Shown: positions 2,333 to 64,000 of the stretch, piece after piece
How positions within the stretch are numbered: the first letter of the stretch is position 1
Layout of the letters: each line of letters begins with the position of its first letter
Origin: an uncultured virus (IMG/VR IMGVR_UViG_3300042568_000222)
Lineage: Duplodnaviria > Heunggongvirae > Uroviricota > Caudoviricetes > Crassvirales
Direction: 5' to 3' (one strand)
DNA length: 64,000 nucleotides
Virus record (IMG/VR): IMGVR_UViG_3300042568_000222
Program-made: the position numbers and the translations under genes
Notes under the pieces: generated by a model
What the model saw: only the letters and a program-made list of their open reading frames with translations
What the model was told of the DNA's origin: nothing
The model's database searches: none

Positions 2333-3214
2333 TTAGGCATAGATGTTAACGTACTCCGATGCCAAGCGGAAGGCACGCTCATCCAAAGTCTGCGATGCAC
2401 CTGACAGCTTGGACACTTCGCGTGAGTTATCGCGGCCTGCAACGTGCGTGGTGTAGTGGGTGATTCCGCTCCACATCCCCCACAGGCTGTAGCCCTTGTA
2501 GGCACACTCCGAGTGGACGCTCTTCAGGATGTCCTGTACACGATTCACAGCCTTGCCATGCAGTGTGCTACGCAGTTCGTCTTCAGAGATGGACACATCG
2601 ATGCCTGTCAACTTGGTGACGTAGCGGTTGATGATGTTTTGGTCAATCTCGATTGCGTCCAGGTCCATGATGGAACGTTCGAACTCCTTGTTGCGTTCGC
2701 GCAACTTGTTTGCCTGTGCGATGTTCTCCTGAATGCGAGATACTGCATTCAACGTGTGCTTGGCCTTGTTGTTCATCTCCTTGAACGCGTGGTTGAACGT
2801 GTTCTTGCAAGAGATGGTGATGGAGGTAGATCCCCATGCGATGGAACGCGAGCCATCGTGGCTGTTGAGACAGGTGACGTAGCTGTCCACCTTGTCGTTG
2901 TTTCTGCCGATGCCATTGAGCGTGGTGTCGAGCAGTTGCACGAAGACGATGCGCCCACCTGACAACTCCCCTGCACGATGCACAGGCAGGTTGGTGTCGT
3001 TGGCAACTGCATCTGCCAACTCGAACAGGCTGCTGTTCTGGAAGGGGGCGTACCTGCCCGTGACGCAGTTCAGGACATCGCCATTGTCGTCGCGCTTGAC
3101 AGCGTAGTACGATGTTGGTTCAACTACACCGCTGGGTGACAGGGTGTACATGGGTTCCTTGGTGACATTCCATCCAAGGCCGTTGGCTTCCGCCATTTTG
3201 CTGTAGTCAATCAT
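2333..3214 (-). CDS. DUF932/DUF945 (TIGR03299-like) phage/plasmid protein
   Basis: GLGWNVTKEP, RYAPFQN, AGELSGGRIVF, LNSHDGS, CKNT, SLWGMWSGITHY motifs. Confidence 0.85.
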   Translation of the reverse strand: MIDYSKMAEANGLGWNVTKEPMYTLSPSGVVEPTSYYAVKRDDNGDVLNCVTGRYAPFQNSSLFELADAVANDTNLPVHRAGELSGGRIVFVQLLDTTLNGIGRNNDKVDSYVTCLNSHDGSRSIAWGSTSITISCKNTFNHAFKEMNNKAKHTLNAVSRIQENIAQANKLRERNKEFERSIMDLDAIEIDQNIINRYVTKLTGIDVSISEDELRSTLHGKAVNRVQDILKSVHSECAYKGYSLWGMWSGITHYTTHVAGRDNSREVSKLSGASQTLDERAFRLASEYVNIYA

Positions 3215-3239
3215 AGCTGTTTGTTTGTTGATGATGGGA

Positions 3240-3295
3240 CAAAGATTGGGTGATTTTGTTTTACGTCAAAATCTGACGTGTTAAAGGGTGTTAAC
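3240..3295 (-). promoter_or_regulatory. Early promoter copy 1 (two TTAAC boxes, -33 TTTG, -7 AATCTTTG)
   Basis: Same layout as four other copies; 19-nt spacer between -33 and -7. Confidence 0.75.
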
Positions 3296-3524
3296 TCAAG
3301 ATTGGTTGTTCGATTTCATAGATGCTGTGCGACATATTCGCATAGAACAAAAGTTTGCGAAATGCCATGTCTGTCAGGATCTGACGAGCCACGAATTCTA
3401 CCTGTGGCATGGAGTCAGTTAGTATCTGCTGCTTGTCCTCCTCGCTGATGGATGAAGGGTCAATCTTCATGAATCGCAGGACATTGTCAATGTCGTAGAT
3501 TCCGAATTCGATGGTCGTTGTCAT
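3291..3524 (-). CDS. Hypothetical protein
   Basis: 77-aa ORF whose stop lies in the promoter TTAA box. Confidence 0.7.
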   Translation of the reverse strand: MTTTIEFGIYDIDNVLRFMKIDPSSISEEDKQQILTDSMPQVEFVARQILTDMAFRKLLFYANMSHSIYEIEQPILS

Positions 3525-3586
3525 TCTTTGGCGAATACTTTGTAACAGGTGAGGAAGATGATGACGAGGATGATGATGTCGAGCAT
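3521..3586 (-). CDS. Small membrane peptide (21 aa)
   Basis: MLDIIILVIIFLTCYKVFAKE; stop overlaps the next ATG; below the track cut-off. Confidence 0.5.
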   Translation of the reverse strand: MLDIIILVIIFLTCYKVFAKE

Positions 3587-3598
3587 GATGATAGTGAA

Positions 3599-3778
3599 TT
3601 AGCTGACCTTGGCGAAGTACACAGCACCTAACATGAGCATGAACTCGATGGATGGGTACAGCCAGTACTCCACGTTGTGGTTGAGTTTGAGACGCGGCAA
3701 CAGGTTACGCAATGCGTAGGTGAAGAGTTGCAGTGTGGATGCAATAAAGATTGCAGAGAGGAGGATGTAATCAGACAT
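3599..3778 (-). CDS. Small two-helix membrane protein (59 aa)
   Basis: MSDYILLSAIFIASTLQLF...FMLMLGAVYFAKVS, read by hand; fills the gap between neighbours. Confidence 0.6.
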   Translation of the reverse strand: MSDYILLSAIFIASTLQLFTYALRNLLPRLKLNHNVEYWLYPSIEFMLMLGAVYFAKVS

Positions 3779-3959
3779 TGTTTGGGTGTTTTTCGGCGTA
3801 GTAATTCTTTGGGTCGTTGTTGTACTTCATCTTGAAGCGCGACCATTGTTTCCTGAAGCAGTCCTCGTTTCGGACTGCCCATTGGTATGGGTTCAGCACA
3901 TCGAATATGTACCTGAGTTCTTGGTTGTCTTCAGACTTCGAAGTATACATTCCTGTCAA
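3771..3959 (-). CDS. Hypothetical protein
   Basis: 62-aa ORF in the operon. Confidence 0.55.
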   Translation of the reverse strand: MTGMYTSKSEDNQELRYIFDVLNPYQWAVRNEDCFRKQWSRFKMKYNNDPKNYYAEKHPNNV

Positions 3960-4317
3960 TTGTTACTATGTACTTGAGTTCTGCACCATCGATGTCGCAT
4001 TCGTTTTGGTCGATCCAGTGGGGCTTCACCTTGGGGTTGAATGATGCCTTGTTGGCTGAACTTACGTCTGCATCGCTGACCAAGGCAGTAGGCACCATTG
4101 TGTAGTTCTTCGCCGCAATCCAAGCACAGACTGACTTGTTCTCGCCACTATGAATCTTGACTGCTGTGGATTTGCGATTCACGAGTTTCACATCGTTCAG
4201 CATGAATGACCATTCGTGTGGGTCAACGTACCTCACCCCGTGCTTTGTGGTGAGTTGCCACATTTGGTAGTTCTCGCCCTTGCCAAGGTGGAATCGGAGT
4301 TTGATATCTCGCTTCAT
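3931..4317 (-). CDS. Hypothetical phage protein
   Basis: 128 aa; RFHLGKG..YQMWQ, KSVCAWI and FNPKVKPHW segments look conserved. Confidence 0.75.
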   Translation of the reverse strand: MKRDIKLRFHLGKGENYQMWQLTTKHGVRYVDPHEWSFMLNDVKLVNRKSTAVKIHSGENKSVCAWIAAKNYTMVPTALVSDADVSSANKASFNPKVKPHWIDQNECDIDGAELKYIVTIDRNVYFEV

Positions 4318-4625
4318 TGCCAGTCGATTTCTGCGCCACGTTCGATGATGGATTCAAGTTGCGCCACACGCTGACGTAGGTATGCGATTTCTTTCTGCTC
4401 GTTGGTGAGTTCCTTGATGTCAAACCAGTTCTCGGTGTCGAATGCTCCTCCTGCAAGGAACTCGTCCTCGTAGTCCTCATGTACGCATACGTAGGGGAAC
4501 CATGCGTCCTTGATGGCTGTGACGAAGATGCGCTCTACGTAGCTGTCCTCTACTTGCGAGCGAACAAGTACACGTTCTCCGCGCTTGAAGATTTGAGCGA
4601 ATTGTTCGGGAGTCAATGGTTTCAT
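4314..4625 (-). CDS. Hypothetical protein with C-terminal coiled coil
   Basis: ATG 4625 after a CAA-rich leader; FKRGERVLV..ERIFV..YVCV. Confidence 0.75.
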   Translation of the reverse strand: MKPLTPEQFAQIFKRGERVLVRSQVEDSYVERIFVTAIKDAWFPYVCVHEDYEDEFLAGGAFDTENWFDIKELTNEQKEIAYLRQRVAQLESIIERGAEIDWQ

Positions 4626-4646
4626 GTCTGTTGTTGTTTGTTGGGT

Positions 4647-4702
4647 CAAAGATGAGGTGAGATTTTCAGATATGCAAGTCCTGATTGTTAATCGATGTTA
4701 AC
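4647..4702 (-). promoter_or_regulatory. Early promoter copy 2
   Basis: GTTAACATCGATTAACA...CTTG-N20-CATCTTTG. Confidence 0.8.
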
Positions 4703-4852
4703 TGATTCCACATCCCATACTTCATCCAAGACATATCCCTTCGTTCTCCTCATGTATGCGACGAAGTTCTCTTGGTGCTGTTGGTCATTGAACGTCTTGG
4801 TGATGACCCATTTCCTGCCGCTTGGGAGGATGAATTGAAGCATGGTTTTCAT
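4688..4852 (-). CDS. Hypothetical protein (54 aa)
   Basis: MKTMLQFILPSGRKWVITKTF...; start overlaps the stop of 4849-5319, stop lies in a promoter box. Confidence 0.6.
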   Translation of the reverse strand: MKTMLQFILPSGRKWVITKTFNDQQHQENFVAYMRRTKGYVLDEVWDVESVNID

Positions 4853-5319
4853 TGTTGTAATGAATCAAAGATTTTCATGAACATAAAATCAAGCTTCTGT
4901 CGTTTCCCCATGAGTTCGTGGTAGTGAGCATCTAATTCTGAATCTTCGCATCGGATTCCCATCGACATCTTGCAAGATTGTTCTCCGACCTTCATGTTGT
5001 ATACATTCGACAGATATCGTGAACGTGACATCAACGAAAGCATGACGTTCTTCTGTAGTTTGGTCATCCCCTTCTTTGGTGGGCAATCCCATTCGTCCTC
5101 GGTGATGTCCTCCCACGATGTCCATTCATATAACTCGCTCAAGTAGTGGTGGTCAAGGATGGTTTGGTCGTCATCCATGTAATTCGCACCATACTCCTGA
5201 CGAAGGATGCACAGCAGAGATTGTTCGGAGGATGCGTAGTACATACCACCATCGATGCAGTAACCTTCGAACATTCCTTTGTTGGTCAAGGAATCGTAGC
5301 GCGGAAATTTCTTACACAT
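4849..5319 (-). CDS. Hypothetical protein
   Basis: 156-aa ORF directly after promoter copy 3. Confidence 0.7.
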   Translation of the reverse strand: MCKKFPRYDSLTNKGMFEGYCIDGGMYYASSEQSLLCILRQEYGANYMDDDQTILDHHYLSELYEWTSWEDITEDEWDCPPKKGMTKLQKNVMLSLMSRSRYLSNVYNMKVGEQSCKMSMGIRCEDSELDAHYHELMGKRQKLDFMFMKIFDSLQQ

Positions 5320-5342
5320 TGTTTGTTGGGTTGATGATGAAA

Positions 5343-5397
5343 CAAAGATGAGGCGAGAAAATCAAAGATGCAAGTTCTGTATGTTAACAGATGTTAA
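5343..5397 (-). promoter_or_regulatory. Early promoter copy 3
   Basis: TTAACATCTGTTAACA...CTTG-N20-CATCTTTG. Confidence 0.8.
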
Positions 5398-6029
5398 TGG
5401 ATGACAAGACCTACCTTGTTGGATGGATTGAACCATTTGGTCGCTTGCACATCCTCGTCCATAGCATCCACATATCCTGCGATGTTCATATCCTCGTAGG
5501 TAGGGAATACCTTGGCGTGCCTGTCCATATTCACGTCTACGTACGCATCCTCTTTGCTACCTTGAGAGAAGATGATGTCGTAGTTGTCGGGCATCAAGCC
5601 TGCATCGATTACAGCCTTCCACAGACGTACGGATTTGGTATAGCTGTAGAATCTGACGTTGGGTAATGCATTAGCAATTGCTAACCATTTATTTATGTAA
5701 TCACGGGAGTAGTAATCTCCTGAATCATGAACTCGGACGAACTTGGCTTTTGTTCGCACGATGTCGCGCACCATGTCATCCACGAACGAATCCAATTTGG
5801 TCTGTTCATATCTCCACTGATACGCATTTCGTGCAGCAGGCCATATGTACGCACCTTTCCGCGCATAGCACATATGACATGGGGATGTTATATCCTCGAC
5901 ATTCGCGAAGGGACAGGTTACCTTTCCCTGTGCATCCCTGTACGCAGGGATTCCGAAGTTCACGACCTTGAATCCGATTGCTTTACTTGTCTTCGCAAGC
6001 TTGCTATTTTGTGAGAGTAATTGTGGCAT
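5394..6029 (-). CDS. Gp88-like phage protein (Cys cluster, radical-SAM-like)
   Basis: NSKLAK, TCPFA...CHMCYARKG, VRVHDSGDYY, FYSYTK; start set at MPQLL (ATG 6029). Confidence 0.8.
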   Translation of the reverse strand: MPQLLSQNSKLAKTSKAIGFKVVNFGIPAYRDAQGKVTCPFANVEDITSPCHMCYARKGAYIWPAARNAYQWRYEQTKLDSFVDDMVRDIVRTKAKFVRVHDSGDYYSRDYINKWLAIANALPNVRFYSYTKSVRLWKAVIDAGLMPDNYDIIFSQGSKEDAYVDVNMDRHAKVFPTYEDMNIAGYVDAMDEDVQATKWFNPSNKVGLVIH

Positions 6030-6031
6030 TG

Positions 6032-6106
6032 TTATTGATTTTTGTGATTCGCATAATGGCAAATCAGGATGGAGAAATAGAGGATGGTGAGGATTGCTGA
6101 AATCAT
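6032..6106 (-). CDS. Small hydrophobic peptide (24 aa), predicted leaderless
   Basis: MISAILTILYFSILICHYANHKNQ; ATG 4 nt after the -7 box, stop 2 nt before the Gp88-like ATG. Confidence 0.5.
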   Translation of the reverse strand: MISAILTILYFSILICHYANHKNQ

Positions 6107-6110
6107 GAGA

Positions 6111-6165
6111 CAAAGATGAGACGAGATTTTCTGCTGTGCAAATTCTGCTTGTTAACAGATGTTAA
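6111..6165 (-). promoter_or_regulatory. Early promoter copy 4
   Basis: TTAACATCTGTTAACA...TTTG-N20-CATCTTTG. Confidence 0.8.
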
Positions 6166-6425
6166 TTCGATGGTTGCCATTCAATTGGAAGACAGCACAG
6201 CAGTACAGAACTTTTGCATCGTTTGAGAGTTGAGTACGAGTTCGCCCAAACAATGCCGTCTTGCATATCACGAACTTCTACCCTCCACAATCCTGTATCT
6301 GTCCTGTAGCGAATTTCACAGGAGAACCATTCTCGCTTGTTCTTGTCGAAACTCAATTGTTCAGAATAGAATTGACTTGCGTAGACTCCTTTGTACTGCC
6401 GAATGAATGTTGCCGAGTATTTCAT
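6162..6425 (-). CDS. Hypothetical protein (first gene of the early arm)
   Basis: 87-aa ORF between promoter copies 5 and 4. Confidence 0.7.
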   Translation of the reverse strand: MKYSATFIRQYKGVYASQFYSEQLSFDKNKREWFSCEIRYRTDTGLWRVEVRDMQDGIVWANSYSTLKRCKSSVLLCCLPIEWQPSN

Positions 6426-6445
6426 GACCTTGAATGTTGATGGTG

Positions 6446-6501
6446 CAAAGATGCACCACGAATCTCATCCTGTCAAGAGGAGGATCGCCAACAGATGTTA
6501 A
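6446..6501 (-). promoter_or_regulatory. Early promoter copy 5
   Basis: TTAACATCTGTTGGC...CTTG-N20-CATCTTTG; one upstream box degenerate. Confidence 0.7.
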
Positions 6502-6914
6502 AACGCCCACAATGCATCGCATACATATGAATCGCGCGACATGCGCGTGTACGAAACCCAAATGACATTTCCAAACGCTTTAACAATCGTTAACAATCAG
6601 CAGTTTACGTTTAGTATTTGCATTGCACATGAATGCAAGTAATGCGCATAAGATGGTGTAGATGTTTAGGTAGTGTATATGGGTAGGGTGATTATCAATG
6701 AGTTACGTCACGTCACCTAAACCTTCACGTTAACCAATGCTACCTAACTCGTTGACGTACAAGGCATTGCCCAAACGTACAAAAAATGCTAAATGTTATG
6801 CCAAAAAGTGTTAAAATGCTAGGCCACGGGGTCGCGGAATCGAGTTCGGGTCGCGTAGGGGGACGTGCGTGTAGTAGTAAGAATCCCCTACCTAAACATT
6901 TCTAAATCGTTTTT
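6502..6914. other. Non-coding region at the early/late boundary (candidate terminus, pac or origin)
   Basis: About 400 nt without a credible ORF; inverted repeats, ACGT-rich motifs and a G-rich block. Confidence 0.5.
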
Positions 6915-16189: not shown

Positions 16190-16263
16190 GCTCCCTTAGC
16201 TCAGTTGGTTAGAGCGCGACGCTTATACCGTCTAGGTCGCTGGTTCAAGTCCAGCAGGGAGTA
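16190..16263 (+). tRNA. tRNA-Ile(UAU)
   Basis: Acceptor GCTCCCT/AGGGAGT, D-arm, loop CTTATAC (anticodon TAT at 16224-16226), T-arm GCTGG-TTCAAGT-CCAGC; CCA not encoded. Confidence 0.85.
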
Positions 16264-16289
16264 CAACAAGAACGGAAACCCTAAAAAAT

Positions 16290-16565
16290 ATGTTAGACAC
16301 CCTTGTAACTGTGGTTGATTCACTCCCAGTGGTAGTGGACACCCTCGCAGCCGTTGCAGATACTGCAACAGTTGCTGTAGAAGCCCCAATCGAAACAACC
16401 GAAACTAGCTGGGTCACGGTAGGTAATCTCATGGAGATCCTTGTGGCCCTTATGGTTTTGGTTAAGGTTATTGTGAACCTTACGCCCACGGAGAGAGACA
16501 ACAAAGTTTTTGGACTTGTTGACTCCATCCTGAACGCTATTGTTCCAGACAGAAGAAAGGCGTAA
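16290..16565 (+). CDS. Small membrane protein, holin-like
   Basis: TM segment ILVALMVLVKVIVNLTPT..DNK and basic C-terminus. Confidence 0.6.
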   Translation: MLDTLVTVVDSLPVVVDTLAAVADTATVAVEAPIETTETSWVTVGNLMEILVALMVLVKVIVNLTPTERDNKVFGLVDSILNAIVPDRRKA

Positions 16566-16573
16566 GCCCTTTA

Positions 16574-16647
16574 GGTCAGGTATCTCAACTGGTAGAGTGT
16601 TTGGTCATCGTACCGAGCGGTTGCGGGTTCGAATCCCGCCCTGACTG
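16574..16647 (+). tRNA. Atypical tRNA with 8-nt anticodon loop, identity undetermined
   Basis: Acceptor GGTCAGG/CCTGACT, T-arm GCGGG-TTCGAAT-CCCGC, stem TTTGG/CCGAG around TCATCGTA. Confidence 0.7.
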
Positions 16648-16652
16648 CAATC

Positions 16653-16726
16653 GCACCCGTAGCTCAGCAGGATAGAGCAACTGCCTTCTAAGCAGTCGGC
16701 CACAGGTTCGAATCCTGTCGGGTGTA
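16653..16726 (+). tRNA. tRNA-Arg(UCU)
   Basis: Canonical cloverleaf; ACTGC-CTTCTAA-GCAGT anticodon arm. Confidence 0.93.
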
Positions 16727-53806: not shown

Positions 53807-54242
53807 AGATACCAAGGTGGGAACTTGGTTGAAGGAAAAGGCTCCTGGGGTTCTTGATACTGTAGGTGACCTTCTCCCCGACAACGGGGCATTGGGGGTG
53901 GTCAAGCGGCTCATTGATCTTGAACCAAATATGACGGCTCAAGAGAAAATGGAGTTTGAGAAGATGCTGCTTGATTATGAGGCCAATGCACAGGATAACG
54001 TGACTGAAAGATGGAAGGCAGACATGATGTCTGACTCATGGCTTTCTAAGAACATCAGACCCATGATGTTGGTGTTCCTTGTTTTATCATTTACTATATT
54101 TGCTTTGTTTGACAGCATAGACAAAATAAACTTTAGCGTTAAGGATGTCTATGTTGACACGATGGGTATACTTATGACTACAGCCTTTACAGCATACTTT
54201 GCTGGAAGGTCTTATGAAAAGGTTCAAATTAAACGAAGATGA
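53778..54242 (+). CDS. Holin (3TM/GTA-holin-like)
   Basis: RWKADMMSDSWLSKNIRP, two TM helices, AYFAGRSYEK. Confidence 0.8.
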   Translation: MKREGRKKIKDTKVGTWLKEKAPGVLDTVGDLLPDNGALGVVKRLIDLEPNMTAQEKMEFEKMLLDYEANAQDNVTERWKADMMSDSWLSKNIRPMMLVFLVLSFTIFALFDSIDKINFSVKDVYVDTMGILMTTAFTAYFAGRSYEKVQIKRR

Positions 54243-55390
54243 TACGGTTCTTTCTCTTGTCGGCGCTCATCACTCTCGCGCAAGTGCTTCCAGCACAAGA
54301 AGAGTGTTTTGTGATGGGGCCACAGGAGGATGTACTTCCAAAGAACCATGCGAAGAATAGAACTGCCTATTCTCAAAAACAAATCAAGTGCGTTGTGCAT
54401 ATCCTTTGGGATACAGCCTTCGCCAACAGCATGATTCCAGAGGATGTCATTGTTGATGCTATGGATCAACTTAATGTAGACTTCGATGGGACAGACATCT
54501 CGTTTACGTTAGAAGACATTGACTACACGAACCTGAACAACTTCACGTGGGCATCTTCATACAGAGCAAGTAACGGCGTTTGCTTCCCTCAGTATGGGAC
54601 GCAGATGGCTCAGTGGACCAATATGGTTAGATGGAATACGGCAGAGTACTGCAACATCTACGTTGCCCCAGACCTCTGCTCATCGATCCTTGGTTTTGCA
54701 TGGGTCACATACCTTCCGTATAGCGTGTTGGATGGGGTGTGGGTGGAGACGGAGGTGATGGGGACATACGGGCCTCACCTCACATTCAGGTTTGAGAATG
54801 AAACTCTTACTCACGAGGTTGGTCACTACTGTGGACTGCATCATGTGTTTAAGAACGGCGCAAGCGCCATCTCTAACTGCGGTCAATACCTAGGCCCTTG
54901 CGAACACAGCGGAGACTACGTGTGCGACACGCCTCCTACAAAGGTTAGCCAAGGCTGTCCAGATGTTCCAGGGTATCATTGCCCATTGATGAATTACGGA
55001 GGGGTGCAGTTCTACCCCAACAATCATATGGACTACTGCCCAGAAGAATGCAGAGACGTGTTTACGGACGGACAGATAGAGCGTATGCACGCCATGCTTG
55101 AATACCAGAGGTCTGAATTGTTTTCTGATGATGTATTCTGTTTTGGTGATCTGAATGGAGATTGCCACGTAGGTACAAACGACCTTCTGGTAATTTTATC
55201 AAATATAGGCTGTGAATTCTGTACCGAAGGGGACATTGATTTAGACCACATGGTCACGTCAAATGACATACTATATTTATTGAATGTATATGGTCAGCAG
55301 TGCAATTGTGACCAGATAATGACTCCAGAGCTAGTAGGCACAAAGCCAGAGAATATACACGAACTACTTGAAAAACTGAATAGACAATGA
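54239..55390 (+). CDS. M43 (pappalysin/ulilysin-like) zinc metalloprotease with signal peptide and two dockerin-like repeats
   Basis: HEVGHYCGLHH, GDYVCDTPP, NHMDY Met-turn, FTDGQIERM, GDLNGDCHVGTNDLL. Confidence 0.9.
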   Translation: MIRFFLLSALITLAQVLPAQEECFVMGPQEDVLPKNHAKNRTAYSQKQIKCVVHILWDTAFANSMIPEDVIVDAMDQLNVDFDGTDISFTLEDIDYTNLNNFTWASSYRASNGVCFPQYGTQMAQWTNMVRWNTAEYCNIYVAPDLCSSILGFAWVTYLPYSVLDGVWVETEVMGTYGPHLTFRFENETLTHEVGHYCGLHHVFKNGASAISNCGQYLGPCEHSGDYVCDTPPTKVSQGCPDVPGYHCPLMNYGGVQFYPNNHMDYCPEECRDVFTDGQIERMHAMLEYQRSELFSDDVFCFGDLNGDCHVGTNDLLVILSNIGCEFCTEGDIDLDHMVTSNDILYLLNVYGQQCNCDQIMTPELVGTKPENIHELLEKLNRQ

Positions 55391-58300
55391 GACCAAGGAA
55401 GCGGTATAAGGTTGGTTATAACGAGCAGATTAAGGACAACGCCAAGAGCGCATATCTTATTAAAGAATCCCTGAACAAGGGTACGCTGAAGCCGCCATCC
55501 GACGCGATGGTCGATCCGTCTGGCAACCCGTACGTCTTTGCCCTTCCTGCCGCTATTGTTGGGGAGGAGTACACGCGTGACGAACAGGGTAGAATTACAT
55601 TCTCGTCTCCCCTGCAAAGGAGCAACTACTTCTACAACAGGAACCTTGGGGAAGAGGGGATTAGCCAGGCCAGGGAGATGGAGGCATCGGTACGAGAGGG
55701 GACTACCAATGCCGTTCAAGGTGCATTGCAAGCTTATGCTGCCTTCTCTGAGCCTCTGGGCTATTTGCAGAAGGCGCTGGTTACAGCGCCATTGGCGCAA
55801 GCTATGGGCAAGCTGGATGAAGTGAATCTTAATCCTGTGGCTATGCTTTCTGGGCAAGACCCAGGTATCTCATCACCTTCAGAAGCACTGGGCATTGAGA
55901 ATCCTATCGGGGCGTTTGCTGTAGACGCTCTTACAGACCCATTGAACTTTGCAGGTGCAGGTCTATTATCTGCAATCAGGAAGCAGCGAATGAAGGGCGC
56001 TGACATCCCGTTCGATCTGCCAGAAGGAGTTGGGGGAGGTGGCCCACCTCGAAACCTGCCTAGCGGGGATGGAGGAACCCCGAAGAAGAAGCCAAACAGA
56101 TACCTCCCAGCACCGCTTGGAGATAACGCATTTGTACCTAAGTCATTGATGGATCAGGGTATTTTGGCAAAACAAGCTAGGCCAGACGGAACATTGCCAG
56201 CAAGCGCTTTCGCAAACACCATGAACAGCGATAACCTATCTGCTGGGGACAAAACATATATCAGGAGAGCTTTAGAGTTAACGCCAGAAGCAGTTAACAA
56301 TAAGGGAGATGTAAATCTTGATCTTTTGAGGGTAGCGGTTCACAACCTATATAACCCAAAAGTAACCACAACTGAAAAATTTGCTAATTATAACATAGAA
56401 GCTATTAGATCGCCAGAAAGAGGATCGATAACATTTGATGGGCTTGAAGCCGTTGACACGAATGATGCGGACCAAGTGCTTGTTGAACTAAAAAACTCTG
56501 GCATAAACATAGACGAAGATGTTTATGACAATGTAGTTTATCCGCTTACCAGATGGGGAAATAAAAATCTTGTGTTTGGAGATGATTTAACTGGAAACAA
56601 GCTGAAACCATTGTCAGATTATATCGATCCGTTTTCATTGGTTGAAAAAACGACAAGTCACATGATGGAATCGGTATTTAGCAAGCCATTAACCGATAAA
56701 AATGGAAGAAAATTACCAGATAATTTGCAAACAACGCTAGGTCCATTCATAAAGTTTGAATATGGAGAATTTGTACCAAATTTTTCTGGTAACTACGAAA
56801 GCGAAATATTTCCAATTCTTAGTGAAGTAGCTGATCATGAACAGAAGAAAGTGATAATAAACGAGTTTGCCAAGTCGGCTAACGACATGAGCTACATTAC
56901 AGAAAGGATAAGCGAATATGATCCTGAAGAATTTAGTCAAGTTATTTCTCAATTAGACGAAGATTTATTTTCTCCAGAAAATTCTCAATCGCTTAAAGAA
57001 GCTGTAATTGAAAGTCACCCAATTTTAAGCATTACAGAAAATTTAGACTTTGATTTTGATAATGCGTTTCTTGGAAGGTTGATTTTAAAAAAACTTGAAG
57101 ACATTGACAATCCAGGGTCTAGGGCAAACTTTAGAAAACTATTTGACGACGATGATATAAACTATGAGGACATACCAAATGCGTATTTAAAAGAAGAAAG
57201 CTATAATTTTGGAAATTTTTTGAATTTTTTAATGGATGATCAATCAGATAGTAAGGAAACAAAAGTTTTTAACGCTAAACAAAACGCCATTAATTCGTCT
57301 CGGTCTAGATTAGAAACTGCAATTAGTCGTTTAAATGATTACTATTATGGCTTAGATCATATACAAAAATTAAGAACCGAATTAGGCCGCCAAGTAGAAG
57401 GGCTGTCTACTAATGCGTATTTGCCAGGAGGTGTTAAAAAAGAAATAATTTCGTTTCTTTTAGGAACGTCTAGCAATCCATTCGATCAAGATAATTTGAT
57501 CACACTTGATATTAATTCAGAACAAATTAAATATTATGAAAATCCACTTGCATATTTTACTTTAGAAAAAAGGCCAATTGAACACATTGCAGAATATCTA
57601 ACAGCAAGAAATGGCCGAAATATAATGAACGATAATGATGTATACAGCTTTATAGATTTCCTGTCTAAACTGGGGCTTAAAATTCCAGATGGATTAGAGG
57701 ACCTTCATTTTCAAATAGCTAACGAGGTTAAAAATGTTGCTATTACGCTTAGCAACATTGAAAGATATTTTGAGAATTCTATGTTAGGTTTAAATGAATT
57801 ATTTCTTGCCTCTTCAAATAATTCATTCTTAAATGCTGAAGTTTCACCTACTAAGCTATCTAAATCGTTAAATTACATAACATATATGTCGGAGACAGCG
57901 AAAGCCCTTAAAAATGTAAAACAACGCAAGCTGTCACAAAGAAATAAAGCCTTACAAAGCCTTGTTGAGAAGGGCAAAGACCCATCAAAAATAAATGTTG
58001 GCAGAACTGTGTTCTTACTTTCAGCAAATTCGATGTTGACTGAAAGTGGTTTTAGAGGTCCAAAACAATCCGACGTTTTTAACGATGAATTGCAGATGTT
58101 TATGCACGAAGGTACGCACTGGAAAGGCACTGAATCTCCAGAAGCGTGGGGTCACATTAGGGTGAATGTAGACTTAGAATATCCAGAAGTACTTCAAGTG
58201 CATGAATCTCAATCTGATTTGTTTCAAACTGGCAAAAGGTATGTTGAAATGGGGATCAATAGGCCAAGAAGTGAGTTTAATGAGTTTGAGGCCCCGTTTT

Positions 58301-58779
58301 TAAAGCAATTAAAAGATGTAGAGACATACCAAAGAACACAGCTTTACAAATCTATTCAAATAGCTATAAATAATGGTCAAACACAAATTGCTTATCCCAC
58401 TAAAGAAACGGCTACCATTATTCAGGGATACAAAACTCAAGAAGATTGGCGCGATGAACTCGACTTTGACGAAAGAATAAGAAAGGCTTCTACCCCAGTA
58501 TATCACCTAAAAAGCAAAGACAATACGTTTGATGAAGTAGAAAGCGCCTCTCGTGAAAACATAAGAGAGCGTTATGAAACTCAAGCTAGATTTGCTGCTA
58601 AAGAATTAAATGTCACGTTAAGGAAAGAAAGAATGAGGGGGTACTACTATTACGTATTTGACATCCCAGAGAAATTCTTGAAGAGAGAAGCTGAGATGCC
58701 TACGTTTGAAAAGGGTGGTAAGTTTAAAATAAATAAGATTGTACCCAAGAAGTTCCTTAGGGCCATGAAGAAAAAATAA
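55387..58779 (+). CDS. Large hypothetical protein, probable internal virion protein, with C-terminal FEKGG tag
   Basis: 1130 aa; DALTDPLNF, WGHIRV..VHESQSD, FEKGGKFK. Confidence 0.7.
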   Translation: MRPRKRYKVGYNEQIKDNAKSAYLIKESLNKGTLKPPSDAMVDPSGNPYVFALPAAIVGEEYTRDEQGRITFSSPLQRSNYFYNRNLGEEGISQAREMEASVREGTTNAVQGALQAYAAFSEPLGYLQKALVTAPLAQAMGKLDEVNLNPVAMLSGQDPGISSPSEALGIENPIGAFAVDALTDPLNFAGAGLLSAIRKQRMKGADIPFDLPEGVGGGGPPRNLPSGDGGTPKKKPNRYLPAPLGDNAFVPKSLMDQGILAKQARPDGTLPASAFANTMNSDNLSAGDKTYIRRALELTPEAVNNKGDVNLDLLRVAVHNLYNPKVTTTEKFANYNIEAIRSPERGSITFDGLEAVDTNDADQVLVELKNSGINIDEDVYDNVVYPLTRWGNKNLVFGDDLTGNKLKPLSDYIDPFSLVEKTTSHMMESVFSKPLTDKNGRKLPDNLQTTLGPFIKFEYGEFVPNFSGNYESEIFPILSEVADHEQKKVIINEFAKSANDMSYITERISEYDPEEFSQVISQLDEDLFSPENSQSLKEAVIESHPILSITENLDFDFDNAFLGRLILKKLEDIDNPGSRANFRKLFDDDDINYEDIPNAYLKEESYNFGNFLNFLMDDQSDSKETKVFNAKQNAINSSRSRLETAISRLNDYYYGLDHIQKLRTELGRQVEGLSTNAYLPGGVKKEIISFLLGTSSNPFDQDNLITLDINSEQIKYYENPLAYFTLEKRPIEHIAEYLTARNGRNIMNDNDVYSFIDFLSKLGLKIPDGLEDLHFQIANEVKNVAITLSNIERYFENSMLGLNELFLASSNNSFLNAEVSPTKLSKSLNYITYMSETAKALKNVKQRKLSQRNKALQSLVEKGKDPSKINVGRTVFLLSANSMLTESGFRGPKQSDVFNDELQMFMHEGTHWKGTESPEAWGHIRVNVDLEYPEVLQVHESQSDLFQTGKRYVEMGINRPRSEFNEFEAPFLKQLKDVETYQRTQLYKSIQIAINNGQTQIAYPTKETATIIQGYKTQEDWRDELDFDERIRKASTPVYHLKSKDNTFDEVESASRENIRERYETQARFAAKELNVTLRKERMRGYYYYVFDIPEKFLKREAEMPTFEKGGKFKINKIVPKKFLRAMKKK

Positions 58780-58849
58780 AGGGGAGCCGCCGTTGCGGCC
58801 CCCCTCCTTTGATATCAACAAACAACAAACTAGAACGCTATCGTCTAGC
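58772..58849 (-). ncRNA. Candidate small regulatory RNA (~75 nt)
   Basis: Consensus promoter TTTG(58884-58881)-N19-TATCTTTG(58861-58854), 5' hairpin, GU-rich single strand, terminator with U-tract; no ORF. Confidence 0.55.
58778..58810. terminator. Bidirectional intrinsic terminator
   Basis: GGGGAGCCGC-CGTT-GCGGCCCCCC flanked by an A-run and a T-run. Confidence 0.75.
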
Positions 58850-58903
58850 GATACAAAGATACAGAACACTAACCGCTGCACAAACCGTTTTATCCACATA
58901 AAT

Positions 58904-59053
58904 ATGAAGCTGATCAAGAGAAAGGATGGGTCGTACTCCAAGAGGGGCCTGTGGGACAACATACGAGCCAACAGAGGATCTGGGAAGGAACCTACGGCAG
59001 CGATGCTCAAGCAGGAGCGTAAGATCAAGAAGGCAGAAAAGAAAAGGGGCTAA
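58904..59053 (+). CDS. Small basic protein (49 aa)
   Basis: MKLIKRKDGSYSKRGLWDNIRANRGSGKEPT... Confidence 0.7.
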   Translation: MKLIKRKDGSYSKRGLWDNIRANRGSGKEPTAAMLKQERKIKKAEKKRG

Positions 59054-59062
59054 CGCCCCTTC
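59044..59062. terminator. Hairpin at the convergence of the late and replication arms
   Basis: AAGGGGC-TAAC-GCCCCTT; U-tract on the minus strand. Confidence 0.65.
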
Positions 59063-59106
59063 TCCAAAGTGATATAGCTGGCTTACCCAGCATTCTGATA
59101 TCGGCT

Positions 59107-61002
59107 TCATCTCACTGGACAAGCGCCTGAGTCACAATCTGTGATGTCAACATCGTCGAATTTGATACCATCAATTGATACCAACGGACTTACCATCTCA
59201 GACATCCTGTTGTATTCTTCTTCCGTGATTTCTTCCAACGGGGCCTGATCGAACCCATGGTCGTTATGAAGCAAGAAGGAAACTGTCTTGACGTTGGGGT
59301 AGTTGTTAACCAGCCACGCCTTGATTTCATCCAACTCTTCCAGTCTGTAGTAGATGGTTACAGACACTGCGTTATCTGACCACTCTTTCTGCAAACGCTT
59401 GATAACCTCAAGCTGATCCACAGCGGTCATGTCCTTTGCCAGCTTGGTCCCATCTGGGAACTTACATGGGAAGCTTACTACCTCTGTGCTGTGGTCCTCC
59501 GTGCCGTCGAAGTTGCGTACAAACTCTACTGGATAACCAGCGTCCTTTGCTGCTCTAACAAGAGGGCTATTTGAGGCCATCCTAACTCTTCTGATGTAGA
59601 ATTGGCTATAGGCAGGATGTGCGCCTGGTGTAACGCCAGCGAGAAGACTAAGTGTTCCAGATGGCTTAACCGTGGTGAGCTTAATGCTTCTATTGAATCC
59701 AATAATGTTAGAGTATTCTTCATCGTATGCTCTGATGTATACATAGCAATCGCTCAACCATGAACGCTGCTCTTCTGTGGCCTGAAGATAACCAGTAACC
59801 CCAATGCCCATGCGCATATTCTCATGCACAATCTGCTCTGTTTCTTCTACGGCACATTTGATTGCCAGGCTGTGCTTGTTGATTCGGTACAGGTATCTGA
59901 CTACCTTCTTCAGTTCTGCGTATGATGTGATGTTCGGGAGGTATACCTCTGCGAGGCAGCACGTCTCAAAGTTTGCAAGGCTCTGCTCTGCACACGGGTT
60001 AAACCCTTGAACGTCTTGGTCAGGGTATTGGGTCTCACCTGTACGCCCCATCCGACGCGCGGCATCCAAGTTAATCAACCCATATGGCTCTCCGTTGCCC
60101 TTGTAGCCCTCCCAGAACTCTTCTGGCAGGTCATTGATGTTGGAGCACACTACGCTGTTGTTAGACATGGCTCTCCAGTTCGGGATGTTGCCAAGGTCCC
60201 AACGCTTTGCACGCAGGTAATCGATGTCGTCAGCATCTCCGATAGCAATCTGTGCAGAGCGCCTTACGTTACCAGCCACCACGATTCTGCCAATGATGTT
60301 CATGATGTCTAGGCAGTCTGTAGGAGTCAGGTACTCACCATTCTTTCCGTTCAGCAGCTTGTTAATTTCCATCATGCCCCACACGAGGTCCTCTGGGCCA
60401 CTGGCCACACCCCCGAATCCTTTGATAGGAGAGCCTTTAGAGCGAATCAAATGCGTAGCGAAGGTGAACCCCTTACCAGTAACAAACGAAGCCTCCAGCA
60501 CCTTCTTAAGCAGCTGAACCCACCCTTCTCTGCTGTCGGGGACAATGAAGTCAGCATCGTTTTGATCTACACGCTTAATCTCTACGTTCTCGTATGGGTT
60601 TGCCAAGTATTTTACGTTGTGTCTCTGGATGTTGAATCCAACCCCACTACCCAGCATAAGCATCTCAAATGCCCACGTAAAAGGACGGATCTCTTCGTCT
60701 ACCACTACGAAGGCGCAGTTCTGCAAGGAAGGGAGTCCAAGCTTGTCTACGGTCTCTGTGCCAAGCTGCCACAGGAACCTCCCAGCTACAGTTCCTTTGA
60801 GGCTGAGCATGATGTCACGAACATCTTGCTTCTCTGCTTCATTGAAATCACATCCAAGCTGATCGTTGCAAGCATTTACCACGCGTTCAACGGTCTCATG
60901 CCATTCTTCTGTTCTGTTGTCAATGGCTCTGGCGTAGGTTCTTTTGAAGACGGGGTAACCTACTTCCCCCCACGGAATCGTGGACGAATTAACAGTGTTC
61001 AT
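59107..61002 (-). CDS. nrdJ: Class II (B12-dependent) ribonucleotide reductase
   Basis: AGRFLW, LQNCAF, MLGSGVGF, VAGNVRRSA, NPCAEQ, ETCCL, TTVKPSGT, C-terminal CDSGACPVR. Confidence 0.95.
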   Translation of the reverse strand: MNTVNSSTIPWGEVGYPVFKRTYARAIDNRTEEWHETVERVVNACNDQLGCDFNEAEKQDVRDIMLSLKGTVAGRFLWQLGTETVDKLGLPSLQNCAFVVVDEEIRPFTWAFEMLMLGSGVGFNIQRHNVKYLANPYENVEIKRVDQNDADFIVPDSREGWVQLLKKVLEASFVTGKGFTFATHLIRSKGSPIKGFGGVASGPEDLVWGMMEINKLLNGKNGEYLTPTDCLDIMNIIGRIVVAGNVRRSAQIAIGDADDIDYLRAKRWDLGNIPNWRAMSNNSVVCSNINDLPEEFWEGYKGNGEPYGLINLDAARRMGRTGETQYPDQDVQGFNPCAEQSLANFETCCLAEVYLPNITSYAELKKVVRYLYRINKHSLAIKCAVEETEQIVHENMRMGIGVTGYLQATEEQRSWLSDCYVYIRAYDEEYSNIIGFNRSIKLTTVKPSGTLSLLAGVTPGAHPAYSQFYIRRVRMASNSPLVRAAKDAGYPVEFVRNFDGTEDHSTEVVSFPCKFPDGTKLAKDMTAVDQLEVIKRLQKEWSDNAVSVTIYYRLEELDEIKAWLVNNYPNVKTVSFLLHNDHGFDQAPLEEITEEEYNRMSEMVSPLVSIDGIKFDDVDITDCDSGACPVR

Positions 61003-61036
61003 AAGTAATTTATTTTTGGAAAGACCGCGAAGATAA

Positions 61037-61537
61037 TCAGAAATCTACAGCGTATCCCCAAACTCTGAAGGTTTCTAAACCCCTCAAATCGTGTAAGTTG
61101 ATGTAAGAGATTACATCCTTCCTACCAGACCTAGTGTACTTTTTCTTGTACGCGTCATCTCTTTTCTGAACGAATACATCCTGTACGTTATTTAGGCTGT
61201 ATTCTAGCAGGTCGAGTCGGTCTACTATGGCGAAGCCACATAGTTCTGGGATGTCTATGGCAATGATCTTTGCATCCCCATAAATCCATCCCTTATTGCC
61301 AATCACGTTGGTGAATTCAACCCATATGAGGTTGACGTTCATGTTTTCCTTCACATCCACTCCCCAAGGGCCTTTGCCTTGGTAGGTGATCCAAACGTCA
61401 ATGTGTCGATTAACATCATCCTGTATGCTTGCTGGGAGTGTCTCAAACCCCAATGCAAGACAACTGTTTATGAATCGGTTTTGGCTTGCGAAAGACCTAT
61501 TATACCCCTGCTTTACCTTGTGTCTCCAGGTACTCAT
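61037..61537 (-). CDS. PD-(D/E)xK-like nuclease-fold protein
   Basis: HIDVW..GVDVK..IWVEF.NV.G.KGWIYGDA. Confidence 0.6.
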   Translation of the reverse strand: MSTWRHKVKQGYNRSFASQNRFINSCLALGFETLPASIQDDVNRHIDVWITYQGKGPWGVDVKENMNVNLIWVEFTNVIGNKGWIYGDAKIIAIDIPELCGFAIVDRLDLLEYSLNNVQDVFVQKRDDAYKKKYTRSGRKDVISYINLHDLRGLETFRVWGYAVDF

Positions 61538-61730
61538 TCAGGGCTTCTTTAATTAAATCAGTTTCTATAGCCACAGAGGACTTGAACCTCTTGACGCTTT
61601 CAAGAACCTTGTCCTTTTCAATATTTGCGCTCCCGTTTATTTCATGAAGTTTCTCGTATAGTTCCTCCGCTTCATCGCAGATCCTAGACGTAGACAAGAA
61701 ATACATACTAGATAACCTAAATCTGTCCAT
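61500..61730 (-). CDS. Hypothetical protein
   Basis: 76-aa ORF coupled within the replication block. Confidence 0.65.
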   Translation of the reverse strand: MDRFRLSSMYFLSTSRICDEAEELYEKLHEINGSANIEKDKVLESVKRFKSSVAIETDLIKEALNEYLETQGKAGV

Positions 61731-62205
61731 TTTTAATCAAATCCTTTATAATATTCAAACACTCGTCTACTTGAAACTTATTCTTTGGGATAAATAACGC
61801 TGGAAGCGGTTTGTTTTCTTTGTAAAGGTAATTTAAGAACAGCTTCCATCTAAGTGGAAACGTGTGCTGTGAAGGTGTATACCCTTTGGTTTCAATGATC
61901 CAGTTGTGGTCCCTTCCTACAAAGTCTGGGGTATACTTAATCGGCAAGACCGCATTCCCAGTTTTGTTAAGCAGTTCCTTCCCCTTGGGGGTCATCTTCC
62001 AGTATTCACCCTCGTAATTGAACCCTTCTTGAAGCGTAAACTCTGCTTCCTCGTAGGCAAAACTTATCCCCAATTCAGACAACCTGTCAGCGCAGTATTT
62101 CTCTAGGGAGGATTTGTATCTGCCGAGTTCTCTTTTGCGTGCTGTCGCTCGTGCTGGGGTTTGGGACCCCGCACGTTGCTTCGCACGATTGCTGTGCCTT
62201 GGCAT
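61717..62205 (-). CDS. T7 endonuclease I-like Holliday junction resolvase
   Basis: YKSSLE..FAYE..YTPDF..IIETKG. Confidence 0.85.
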   Translation of the reverse strand: MPRHSNRAKQRAGSQTPARATARKRELGRYKSSLEKYCADRLSELGISFAYEEAEFTLQEGFNYEGEYWKMTPKGKELLNKTGNAVLPIKYTPDFVGRDHNWIIETKGYTPSQHTFPLRWKLFLNYLYKENKPLPALFIPKNKFQVDECLNIIKDLIKNGQI

Positions 62206-62241
62206 TGGGCAAAGTTACAGACTTTTTCGTTGAAAGTCAAA

Positions 62242-64000
62242 TTATATATTTCTGTCGAACTCACGATACACATCGAACTGATTTGTAATGGGTTGGAATA
62301 GTCCACCTAAAGTATTGCTTGAGGCAAAACCAGTCATTGTGGAGTTTATGTGGAACAATAGCGGCTCATCGATGGGTGTAGGCTGTCCTCCAGTTTTCAC
62401 TTCACGCACCTTACGTACATGAATCTCAGTGCTTTTGCGTATCGCAGGGTCGGGAGATTGGATCTTTCTGTGAATGGTCAGGAACCCGTCTGCACGGTTA
62501 ACAAACTTTCCACCACCCTCTGTGTCTTCTGCGTAAGGAGCTACAGGAAGGCCGTCATCTCCCTTCCTACGTTGGGCTTCTGTAACAGCGTGCATATTGA
62601 GCCATACAGCCACGTTGTGGGCCTTGCTGAACGTAAGAAACTCAGAAGCAGCTTCGTAGTGGTAGTCGTGAACCCCGATGCTGTTTGATTTCATAGAAAT
62701 CTTCAAGCTATTGTAGGGATCAATAAAAACTGCATCCACCTTGTCGTAGCGCATAGTCTTCTCCATGAACATGATCAAGTCGCCATAGGAGTACGTCTCG
62801 TTGTTCTTGATGATAGTGAAATGCTCGTTGACGTACTTGTAGGCAGTCTTCCTTTGGTCGTAGTTCATGTCAATCAGTTTCCGCTGCGTACAGAACTCCA
62901 TCAGCGTCCCCTTGAGTGACCACGTGCTGTTCTCGCTGCTGTACACGAGCCACTTCCAATTGTGACGGATGGCAGCGTTCACCATCAGGTATAATACCAT
63001 CGTAGTCTTACCTACGTTGCTGTGACCATTGAAGATGACGAACTCGTTCTTGTACCTGAAGTACTCGTCCATCCTGATATCACCTGTATCCAATCCAATT
63101 TTAATCTTCCCCTCTGCAAACTCATTGATCAGGTGGAAGTCGTTGTTGTCGCTACTGATGAATGACATATCCCCATCGTTGATTCGCATCTCACGTTCAA
63201 TAGAACGCTCGTCGCTAACCAATTCGTGGATCGGTGTAGTCCTGCCATATTCGATGCCTTGGCGTATCGTGTCAAGGGCTGTGCTTTCAGAATCTACATC
63301 CCGTTTCTGTATCTCACGGAACAAGACCCTGACCACCTCGTCTTCTTCCATCCTCCCCACGCCTACGTAACCGCCACATAGCTTGGCTGCCTTTAATAGC
63401 GTGTGGTGCTTCTGCCCATCTTCTGCCTGGCGGATCATCTTCGCTGCCAGGTTCAGCTTCATGTAGTCGGTGTATATCTCCGTAGAGGTAACCGCCTGTT
63501 CTGTTACGGAACCAGCAAGACCACCATACAAAGTACTTCCTTCGTTGATGACGATGTTTGGGTCGTACGATTCAAAGCAAGCCCGTGATTCATTGATCCC
63601 AGTCTCGTCTACGTACAACCCGTAAGTCACATCGAAATACTTCTTCAATGACCTGAAGTGATCCCTGTGGCGCTCTGGGTTGGTAATCTTCACCAGCACC
63701 TTGAGTCCATTGCCCGAAGGGGATACCCAACACGAATAGACGTACTGATCCGTAGCTAGGATGTCCTTGGATTGGGACACGTCAATCTTGTCAAAGTCAA
63801 GTACGATGTATCCGCTGTGTTCCACCATGGCATCGTCTTCACGAGAAGTAAATTCTCCGCTAAACAATACCACTGGGAGCAGCATCTTATCGTTCTTCTC
63901 ACCTTCACGCACCCTCTCCACCGTCTCCCTGCTCGTACCATCCTTGATACGCTTCAGGGCAGTCTCCATCCATATGGTATGGGGCTGCGAGGTGGAGTAG
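62242..64000 (-). CDS. Primase-helicase (BT4734/VirE-N-like domain fused to DnaB-like helicase), 5'-partial
   Basis: LPVVLFSGEF, IVLDFD, WVSPSGNGLK, RACFESYDP; GHSNVGKT, FIDPYN, GGGKFVNRAD; frame open to the window edge. Confidence 0.85.
   Translation of the reverse strand, partial: YSTSQPHTIWMETALKRIKDGTSRETVERVREGEKNDKMLLPVVLFSGEFTSREDDAMVEHSGYIVLDFDKIDVSQSKDILATDQYVYSCWVSPSGNGLKVLVKITNPERHRDHFRSLKKYFDVTYGLYVDETGINESRACFESYDPNIVINEGSTLYGGLAGSVTEQAVTSTEIYTDYMKLNLAAKMIRQAEDGQKHHTLLKAAKLCGGYVGVGRMEEDEVVRVLFREIQKRDVDSESTALDTIRQGIEYGRTTPIHELVSDERSIEREMRINDGDMSFISSDNNDFHLINEFAEGKIKIGLDTGDIRMDEYFRYKNEFVIFNGHSNVGKTTMVLYLMVNAAIRHNWKWLVYSSENSTWSLKGTLMEFCTQRKLIDMNYDQRKTAYKYVNEHFTIIKNNETYSYGDLIMFMEKTMRYDKVDAVFIDPYNSLKISMKSNSIGVHDYHYEAASEFLTFSKAHNVAVWLNMHAVTEAQRRKGDDGLPVAPYAEDTEGGGKFVNRADGFLTIHRKIQSPDPAIRKSTEIHVRKVREVKTGGQPTPIDEPLLFHINSTMTGFASSNTLGGLFQPITNQFDVYREFDRNI

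Follow-up and report, generated by a model that had tools for sequence, protein, structure and literature searches.

The 64,000-nt stretch of DNA analysed here (the window) belongs to an uncultured virus of the Crassvirales (IMG/VR record IMGVR_UViG_3300042568_000222), and its minus strand carries a candidate gene for a small RNA (sRNA). The whole unit, read from the sequence, extends from promoter to U tract at 58884-58771 (-) and is composed of a promoter, a 5' hairpin, a linker and a terminator. In silico analysis supports a discrete minus-strand unit under purifying selection, and we estimate the probability that it is a real phage sRNA gene at roughly 70%. The linker is complementary to the short CA-rich leaders of three early operons. 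It is plausible that the RNA acts against these leaders by pairing with them, although from the sequences alone we would give this target and mechanism somewhat less than even odds.

The candidate promoter consists of a -33 box TTTG (58881..58884 (-)) and, after a spacer of 19 nt, a -7 box TATCTTTG (58854..58861 (-)). The latter is of the Bacteroidota TAnnTTTG type, and its ATCTTTG core is the one found in six early promoters on the same strand. About 5 nt past the -7 box begins the 5' hairpin, CUAGACG-AUAG-CG(U)UCUAG (58830..58848 (-), -6.5 kcal/mol), which has 7 pairs, one bulged U and the loop AUAG. The predicted RNA is ~79 nt long (58771..58849 (-)); its probable 5' end was placed from the box-to-start spacing (+/-2 nt), and its 3' end is the U tract. 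Between the 5' hairpin and the terminator stem the minus strand reads GUUUGUUGUUUGUUGAUAUCAAA. This linker (58808..58829 (-)) contains the GU-rich 17-nt seed GUUUGUUGUUUGUUGAU (58830-58814 (-)), followed by AUCAAA, and finds its best pairing with the early leaders. The terminator stem-loop (58778..58807 (-)) has 13 pairs, 9 of them G-C, and the loop AACG; it is followed by the U tract TTTATTTTTT (58771..58780 (-)). A sequence-only reading had proposed this series of elements on the minus strand, and all of them were found where it had placed them.

The terminator is strand specific. On the minus strand the stem-loop 58807-58778 runs into UUUAUUUUUU, whereas after the hairpin the plus strand has only CCTTTGAT. 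The folding energy was -24.9 kcal/mol for the minus-strand RNA versus -19.6 kcal/mol for the plus-strand RNA. In all four copies of the unit the minus-strand RNA was the more stable, by 5.3-8.8 kcal/mol, because of its G-U pairs. Furthermore, this stem-loop was the strongest site in a terminator scan of 56000-64000, where it was listed for the minus strand only; the RNA's own strand, and that strand only, thus carries a Rho-independent terminator made of a 13-bp stem and a U tract. The 85-nt stretch folded with a z score of -5.9, and none of 200 shuffles folded equally well.

Relatives were sought with the ribonucleotide reductase (RNR), 49-amino-acid (aa), DUF932 and tail-end proteins, with two DNA patterns and with a covariance model. 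Four IMG/VR contigs carry the unit: one is identical to the window, two (L008 and L012) are ~85% identical, and the fourth (L065) is the complete 69,303-bp genome G002, which has terminal repeats and a reductase 83% identical to that of the window. The pattern of changes is uneven. Between the window and L008 or L012 the linker showed 0/22 differences, and the terminator with its U tract showed 0/37 in L008 and 2/37 in L012. Linker and terminator together thus carried 0/59 and 2/59 changes, while the flanks differed by 11-17%: 17/150 positions in the 49-aa gene and 14-15/81 at the end of the 1130-aa open reading frame (ORF), the two plus-strand neighbours of the unit. In the promoter, 4/31 positions differed and all of them lie in the spacer, the TTTG box being identical. 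The 5' hairpin had 3/24 differences, which amount to one compensatory double change from C-G to U-A and one loop change. The two changes in the L012 terminator (G-U to A-U and C-G to U-G) leave the pairing intact only on the minus-strand RNA.

In the more distant G002 the same plan was observed with other sequences. This genome retains TTG-N19-TATATTAG, with TTG as its -33 box and the equal 19-nt spacing, a 7-bp hairpin, a linker made of a GUUU repeat (GUUUGUUUGUUUGU), and a related terminator with a U tract. Its hairpin (AAGCUAA/UUAGCUU, 7 bp) is unrelated in sequence and stands in the equivalent place. A perfect 10-bp palindrome, TTGATATCAA (58812-58821), which is found in L008 and L012 and not in L065, marks the 3' end of the window's seed; it could serve for RNA self-pairing or as a DNA site.

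That the unit lacks an ORF, as claimed by the sequence-only reading, was confirmed by the relatives. No conserved ORF was found within the unit when ORFs were compared across L008 and L012, since the open frames were broken by a stop or had lost their ATG. A plus-strand frame upstream of the 49-aa gene, open in the window, was rejected as coding because both L008 and L012 have a stop in it, and a 38-aa minus-strand ORF behind the terminator was rejected because its ATG is lost in L012. Two other candidate signals were also discarded. The plus-strand promoter CTCCTTTG inside the hairpin lacks a -33 box and is not conserved in G002, and the Shine-Dalgarno (SD)-like AAAGGAGG in the terminator stem is broken in L012.

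The complementarity of the linker to early leaders is exact over 13, 12 and 10 nt, just as the sequence-only reading had reported. The longest proposed target, CAACAAACAACAA (4631..4643 (-)), precedes the ATG at 4625 by 5 nt, within the leader of that gene. The next, ATCAACAAACAA / AUCAACAAACAA (3221..3232 (-)), belongs to the leader of the DUF932 gene, whose ATG at 3214 follows after 6 nt. The third, CAACAAACAA (5319..5328 (-)), has as its last base the A of the start codon at 5319. The three leaders share the core AACAAACAA, a motif that is the same read backwards; the minus strand of the window holds exactly 3 copies of it, all in these leaders. The 10-mer CAACAAACAA occurs 4 times on the two strands of the window versus 0.33 expected, and 0/100 shuffles reached 4. 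The complement of the 17-mer, with <=3 mismatches allowed, gave 3 matches versus 0.31 expected; two of these overlap within one leader and the third is the unit itself.

When 68 start regions (-30 to +6), chosen by a simple ORF picker, were scored for duplex formation with the linker, the early leaders took ranks 1-3. Their energies were -18.2 (gene 4625), -15.6 and -15.5 kcal/mol, compared with a mean of -7.7 (sd 3.1). In a control in which the 17-nt seed was shuffled with its composition kept and scored against the three 5' untranslated regions (UTRs) from their inferred starts, 5/2000 mononucleotide shuffles (0.25%) reached the summed energy of -44.2, and 0/2000 reached the summed exact match of 34 nt. 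For G002, where the seed of that genome was scored against three early leaders defined from their promoters, 0.3% of shuffles did as well on both measures, and four of the five best start regions for that seed belong to early-strand genes. The complementarity to the proposed target start regions is therefore above composition-matched chance.

The target genes belong to a distinctive promoter set. Six further minus-strand promoters (TTG, 20-21 nt, ATCTTTG) stand directly before the genes at 6425, ~6113, 5319, 4852, 4625 and 3214. Just upstream of the -33 boxes we found TTAACA-N4-TTAACA, of which the window holds five perfect copies, all within 3279-6595 and each before an ATCTTTG promoter (3279-3294 (-), 4686-4701 (-), 5382-5397 (-), 6150-6165 (-) and 6580-6595 (+)). 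This motif was borne by all early promoters examined and also precedes the homologous promoters in G002, and it is probably the operator of some early regulator. In G003 the operator-to-ATG stretch of the DUF932 gene is identical. The sRNA promoter lacks TTAACA-N4-TTAACA and matches the host-type consensus better than any other site in the window. The three CA-rich leaders (genes 4625, 5319 and 3214) are only ~17-21 nt long, and no SD motif was found at any start region examined in the window; together with the promoter type, this would fit a Bacteroidota host. Several other genes (7217 (-), 9381 (+), 7936 (+), 62205 (-) and ~6113 (-)) have a TAnnTTTG-type -7 box 4-6 nt before the ATG, so that their messages would be leaderless or nearly so, unlike those with the CA-rich leaders.

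From these observations a mechanism can be proposed. Host RNA polymerase would transcribe the ~79-nt non-coding RNA leftward from the consensus Bacteroidota promoter, the strand-specific intrinsic terminator would end it, and the 5' hairpin would probably act as a stabiliser. We infer that the RNA is made and pairs in vivo, the linker most likely with the CA-rich leaders (core AACAAACAA) of the early operons at 4625, 5319 and 3214. As the leaders measure ~17-21 nt and have no SD motif, the linker/leader duplex would cover the region that the 30S subunit must bind unstructured, and translation of the three operons would be lowered by this pairing. GibS of Bacteroides acts in this way (PMC7366714), and the proposal also agrees with the finding that translation initiation in Flavobacterium johnsoniae depends on mRNA structure (PMC6847099). 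A riboregulator that recognises a shared SD-less CA-rich leader element, with one 17-nt seed throttling several of the phage's own early operons, is a reading that we advance tentatively and hold to be less likely than not.

The timing of this RNA would differ from what had been proposed. The sequence-only reading had taken it for an early-to-late switch, and this found no support. Because the promoter is of host type and the operator is missing, the RNA would be an early or constitutive product, present from the onset of infection. This suggests a damper or timer on the leadered early genes and not a switch made late. A late plus-strand transcript across the unit would match the RNA by perfect complementarity and could titrate it or be cut together with it; it might serve as a sponge.

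Several observations weigh against an sRNA that acts on these leaders. The promoter consensus TTG-N19-TAnnTTTG gave 3 matches in the window versus 0.82 expected, and at least 3 were reached in 5/100 shuffles, so that on its own it is near chance and counts as weak evidence; moreover, the -7 box of G002, TATATTAG, is not of the TAnnTTTG type. No run on record as RNA contains the stretch. Small shares of it (0.08 and 0.06) occur in two runs of one study labelled 'RNA? (probably DNA)'; over 55000-62000 these gave 15 short contig pieces, one at 58872-59046 and none over the sRNA body, and these pieces say nothing for or against a transcript. Only four IMG/VR contigs yielded the unit and three of these are closely related, so that structural covariation is limited to one compensatory pair and one replaced hairpin.

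The pairing itself also has weaknesses. The best 23-mer for the seed was only 16th of 42,558 genome windows on both strands, and an equal or better raw duplex energy was reached at some ten further sites, most of them in G-rich coding sequence. After opening costs the net pairing energy was only about -9 kcal/mol, with ~5 kcal/mol needed to open the seed. The linker and the downstream GAUAUCAAA are predicted to form a weak local hairpin. For an RNA that starts near 58849, the fold is predicted to consist of the 5' hairpin, this weak linker hairpin and the terminator; an RNA that starts a few bases upstream is predicted to engage the seed with its 5' part by way of G-U pairs. The most stable predicted fold of L065 also joins seed and 5' part (-27.1 kcal/mol versus -25.9 kcal/mol for the free-seed fold). 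Given the linker hairpin and the alternative 5' pairing, the seed is not clearly free. Its accessibility was partial in the predicted ensembles, and its sequence is conserved (0/22) in the close relatives. The middle of the RNA, described as single-stranded by the sequence-only reading, does lie between two hairpins, but it is predicted to be partly engaged in these pairings.

Covariation between seed and leaders was also lacking between the window and G002. The seed of the window fits the G002 leaders with exact matches of 10-11 nt and thereby equals the seed of G002 itself; in the reverse direction the equal fit of the G002 seed holds for one window leader; both seeds match the shared core. 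In addition, CA-repeat leaders are common in unrelated phages, which makes the motif low in information. A search of related phages, advised by the sequence-only reading, thus yielded the unit in L008, L012 and G002 but no seed/leader covariation, while the shuffled controls that it had also advised were beaten by the early leaders in the window and in G002 alike. Its central proposal of a trans-acting sRNA on early operons is therefore only partly upheld: the unit is discrete and conserved, and the leaders rank highest among the start regions and beat shuffles, but the seed and leaders do not covary and the raw duplex energies are not unique.

The same body of evidence can be read in other ways. 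The RNA may be real and act in cis, as an antisense to the late plus-strand transcript where this runs from the 1130-aa ORF to the 49-aa gene. By pairing or by head-on transcription it could then influence how far the 49-aa gene is reached by read-through, or how stable the message is, or the late transcript could mop up the RNA. A plus-strand transcript presumably does cross the unit, which lies wholly between these two plus-strand genes. We found no Bacteroidota-type promoter on the plus strand at 58780-58903 for the 49-aa gene, and no plus-strand terminator there; because the plus-strand hairpin is weaker and has no U tract, late transcripts would probably read through. The 5' UTR of the 49-aa gene is probably antisense to the unit. 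However, cis action requires no particular sequence, while the linker is invariant in the near relatives and stays a GUUU repeat in G002 although the hairpin there has been replaced. It also leaves unexplained the above-chance complementarity to three distant leaders, and there are relatives with the 49-aa gene but without the unit (L003, L013 and L014, and 77/80 of the loci fetched with the 49-aa protein). We consider this cis-antisense role, the chief rival reading, unlikely.

Improbable to a similar degree is the absence of any functional sRNA, where the hairpin would be a shared 3' end structure of convergent blocks and the promoter a chance match, and the conserved CA-rich tract would have its function on the plus strand, such as that of an unstructured element for ribosome loading or stability before the 49-aa gene. 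The near-chance frequency of the promoter consensus agrees with this, and a hairpin followed by a CA-rich tract on the plus strand resembles the terminator-then-leader layout common in unrelated phages. However, ~75 nt and a hairpin separate the CA tract from the start codon of the 49-aa gene, the G-U pairs and the U tract favour a minus-strand terminator in 4/4 copies, and the -33 and -7 boxes are kept while their spacer varies, with the 19-nt spacing preserved in G002. Finally, the RNA may be real but have its main partners elsewhere, either CA- or A-rich leaders of host mRNAs or a host RNA-binding protein titrated by the GU-rich linker. The promoter is of host type and lacks the early operator, which points to expression already in the first minutes of infection, CA-rich leaders are widespread, and the window and G002 share the GU-repeat character of the linker and not its exact order, all of which would suit such partners. 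The order-specific fit to the phage's own leaders needs no further partner, and we regard this last reading as very unlikely. An expressed phage sRNA gene, with the early leaders as its most likely targets, remains our preferred reading.

No further members were found in 80 of 330 RNR loci from IMG/VR, 80 of 542 RNR loci from metagenomes, or 80 of the 421 that the 49-aa protein retrieved. A seed-plus-terminator pattern scan returned 50 loci, of which 4 were the known units, with no others; these loci (L178-L227) and later ones were inspected by script, without the covariance model. A promoter-plus-seed scan returned 21 loci including 3 known units, and a look-alike among them (L343) was rejected because its 45%-complete contig has no matching leaders. 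Searches with the C-terminal part of the 1130-aa protein returned only the window's own phage, DUF932 protein and alignment searches returned the same four contigs only, and nothing in the nearest record (G001) matched 58400-59400.

Two loci downstream of the same RNR gene, L020 (G007; 3229-3424) and L260 (3382-3597), are candidate distant relatives. Each has a tRNA-Arg(CCU), then a promoter-like TAYCTTKC box and ~95 nt without an ORF, in which the GU-rich tract GUUUGAUUUUGGUUUAG stands just before a window-like terminator. The covariance-model E-values were 0.0044 (L020) and 0.0019 (L260), the match being mostly to the terminator. Compared with the window unit, the body is longer and of different sequence, and it is preceded by the tRNA gene. 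Judged by sequence, these elements may be distant relatives of the unit. No complete genome was found for this type, and the early regions lie off these contigs.

The unit is located between the stop of the 1130-aa ORF (55387-58779, +) and the 49-aa gene (58904..59053 (+)). The last codons of the former (KKK and stop) overlap the U tract, so that the end of the ORF supplies it. Directly before this ORF, 54239-55390 (+) encodes a 383-aa protein with a Peptidase_M43 / reprolysin-like metallopeptidase domain (E = 2.5e-18). The divergent 49-aa gene encodes a very basic protein (MKLIKRKDGSYSKRGLWDNIRANRGSGK...) with at least 421 relatives in IMG/VR contigs; a scan of Pfam and PHROG with 58904-59050 gave no family match. 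The 3' end of the gene and the terminator (59062-59042) of the convergent minus-strand RNR gene overlap. In L003, L013 and L014 the place of the unit (~5160-5300, locus plus strand) is taken by another small basic ORF, which abuts the 49-aa gene in reverse complement, as read by eye from the alignment. Elsewhere in the window, three clustered tRNA genes (16190-16726 (+)) lie inside a plus-strand block.

If the proposed function is true, the unit would be, as far as the literature was searched, the first described regulatory RNA of a Bacteroidota phage; our limited searches on Flavobacterium, Cellulophaga and crAss phages found no paper on such an RNA. Occlusion of a short unstructured leader would then suffice for translation control in a phylum that initiates without SD pairing, and a phage could co-regulate several operons through a common leader element. 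The 17-nt seed and the 17-21-nt leaders form a compact and testable pair, which would offer a tool for asking how unstructured leaders drive initiation where ribosomes ignore the SD sequence. If the RNA is not expressed, the locus would be only a strand-switch terminator with a look-alike promoter.

Small phage RNAs that act on the phage's own messages are known from other systems. The c4 RNA of P1 and P7 and the CI RNA of P4 use short stretches that match repeated leader sites and jointly shut down early or lytic genes of their own phage; they are processed from the transcript that carries their targets and serve lysogenic immunity. The window unit resembles them in its short complementary stretches and in the several sites in the phage's own leaders. 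However, it stands outside the early operons, has a candidate promoter and a terminator of its own, and is separated from the targets by 55 kb, or by less on a circular genome; no lysogeny genes were seen among the few window proteins scanned, a scan that was not a systematic search. OOP of lambda and sar of P22 are ~70-80 nt long, have their own promoter and intrinsic terminator, and are not known to act on transcripts other than the one that they overlap. The unit is similar to them in size, candidate promoter, terminator and predicted transcription against a phage message, while its conserved linker also matches three distant leaders.

The closest parallel in the phylum is GibS of Bacteroides thetaiotaomicron (RF04182), a trans-acting Bacteroidetes sRNA whose conserved single-stranded seed pairs with translation initiation regions (PMC7366714). 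GibS has its own promoter, a Rho-independent terminator and a seed directed against SD-less initiation regions (PMC7366714); the unit has a Rho-independent terminator too, together with a candidate promoter and a putative seed. No match to the unit was obtained at gathering thresholds among all 4227 Rfam families; at E up to 5, GibS itself reached only 17 bits versus its gathering threshold of 115 (E = 3.6), next to a chance match to a small nucleolar RNA. The two RNAs have no relationship in sequence or structure. GibS is chromosomal and ~140 nt long with its seed at the 5' end, whereas the unit is phage-borne and ~79 nt long, carries its seed between two hairpins, and has the phage's own early leaders as proposed targets. 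The build of the unit is standard for a base-pairing sRNA, and it belongs to no described family.

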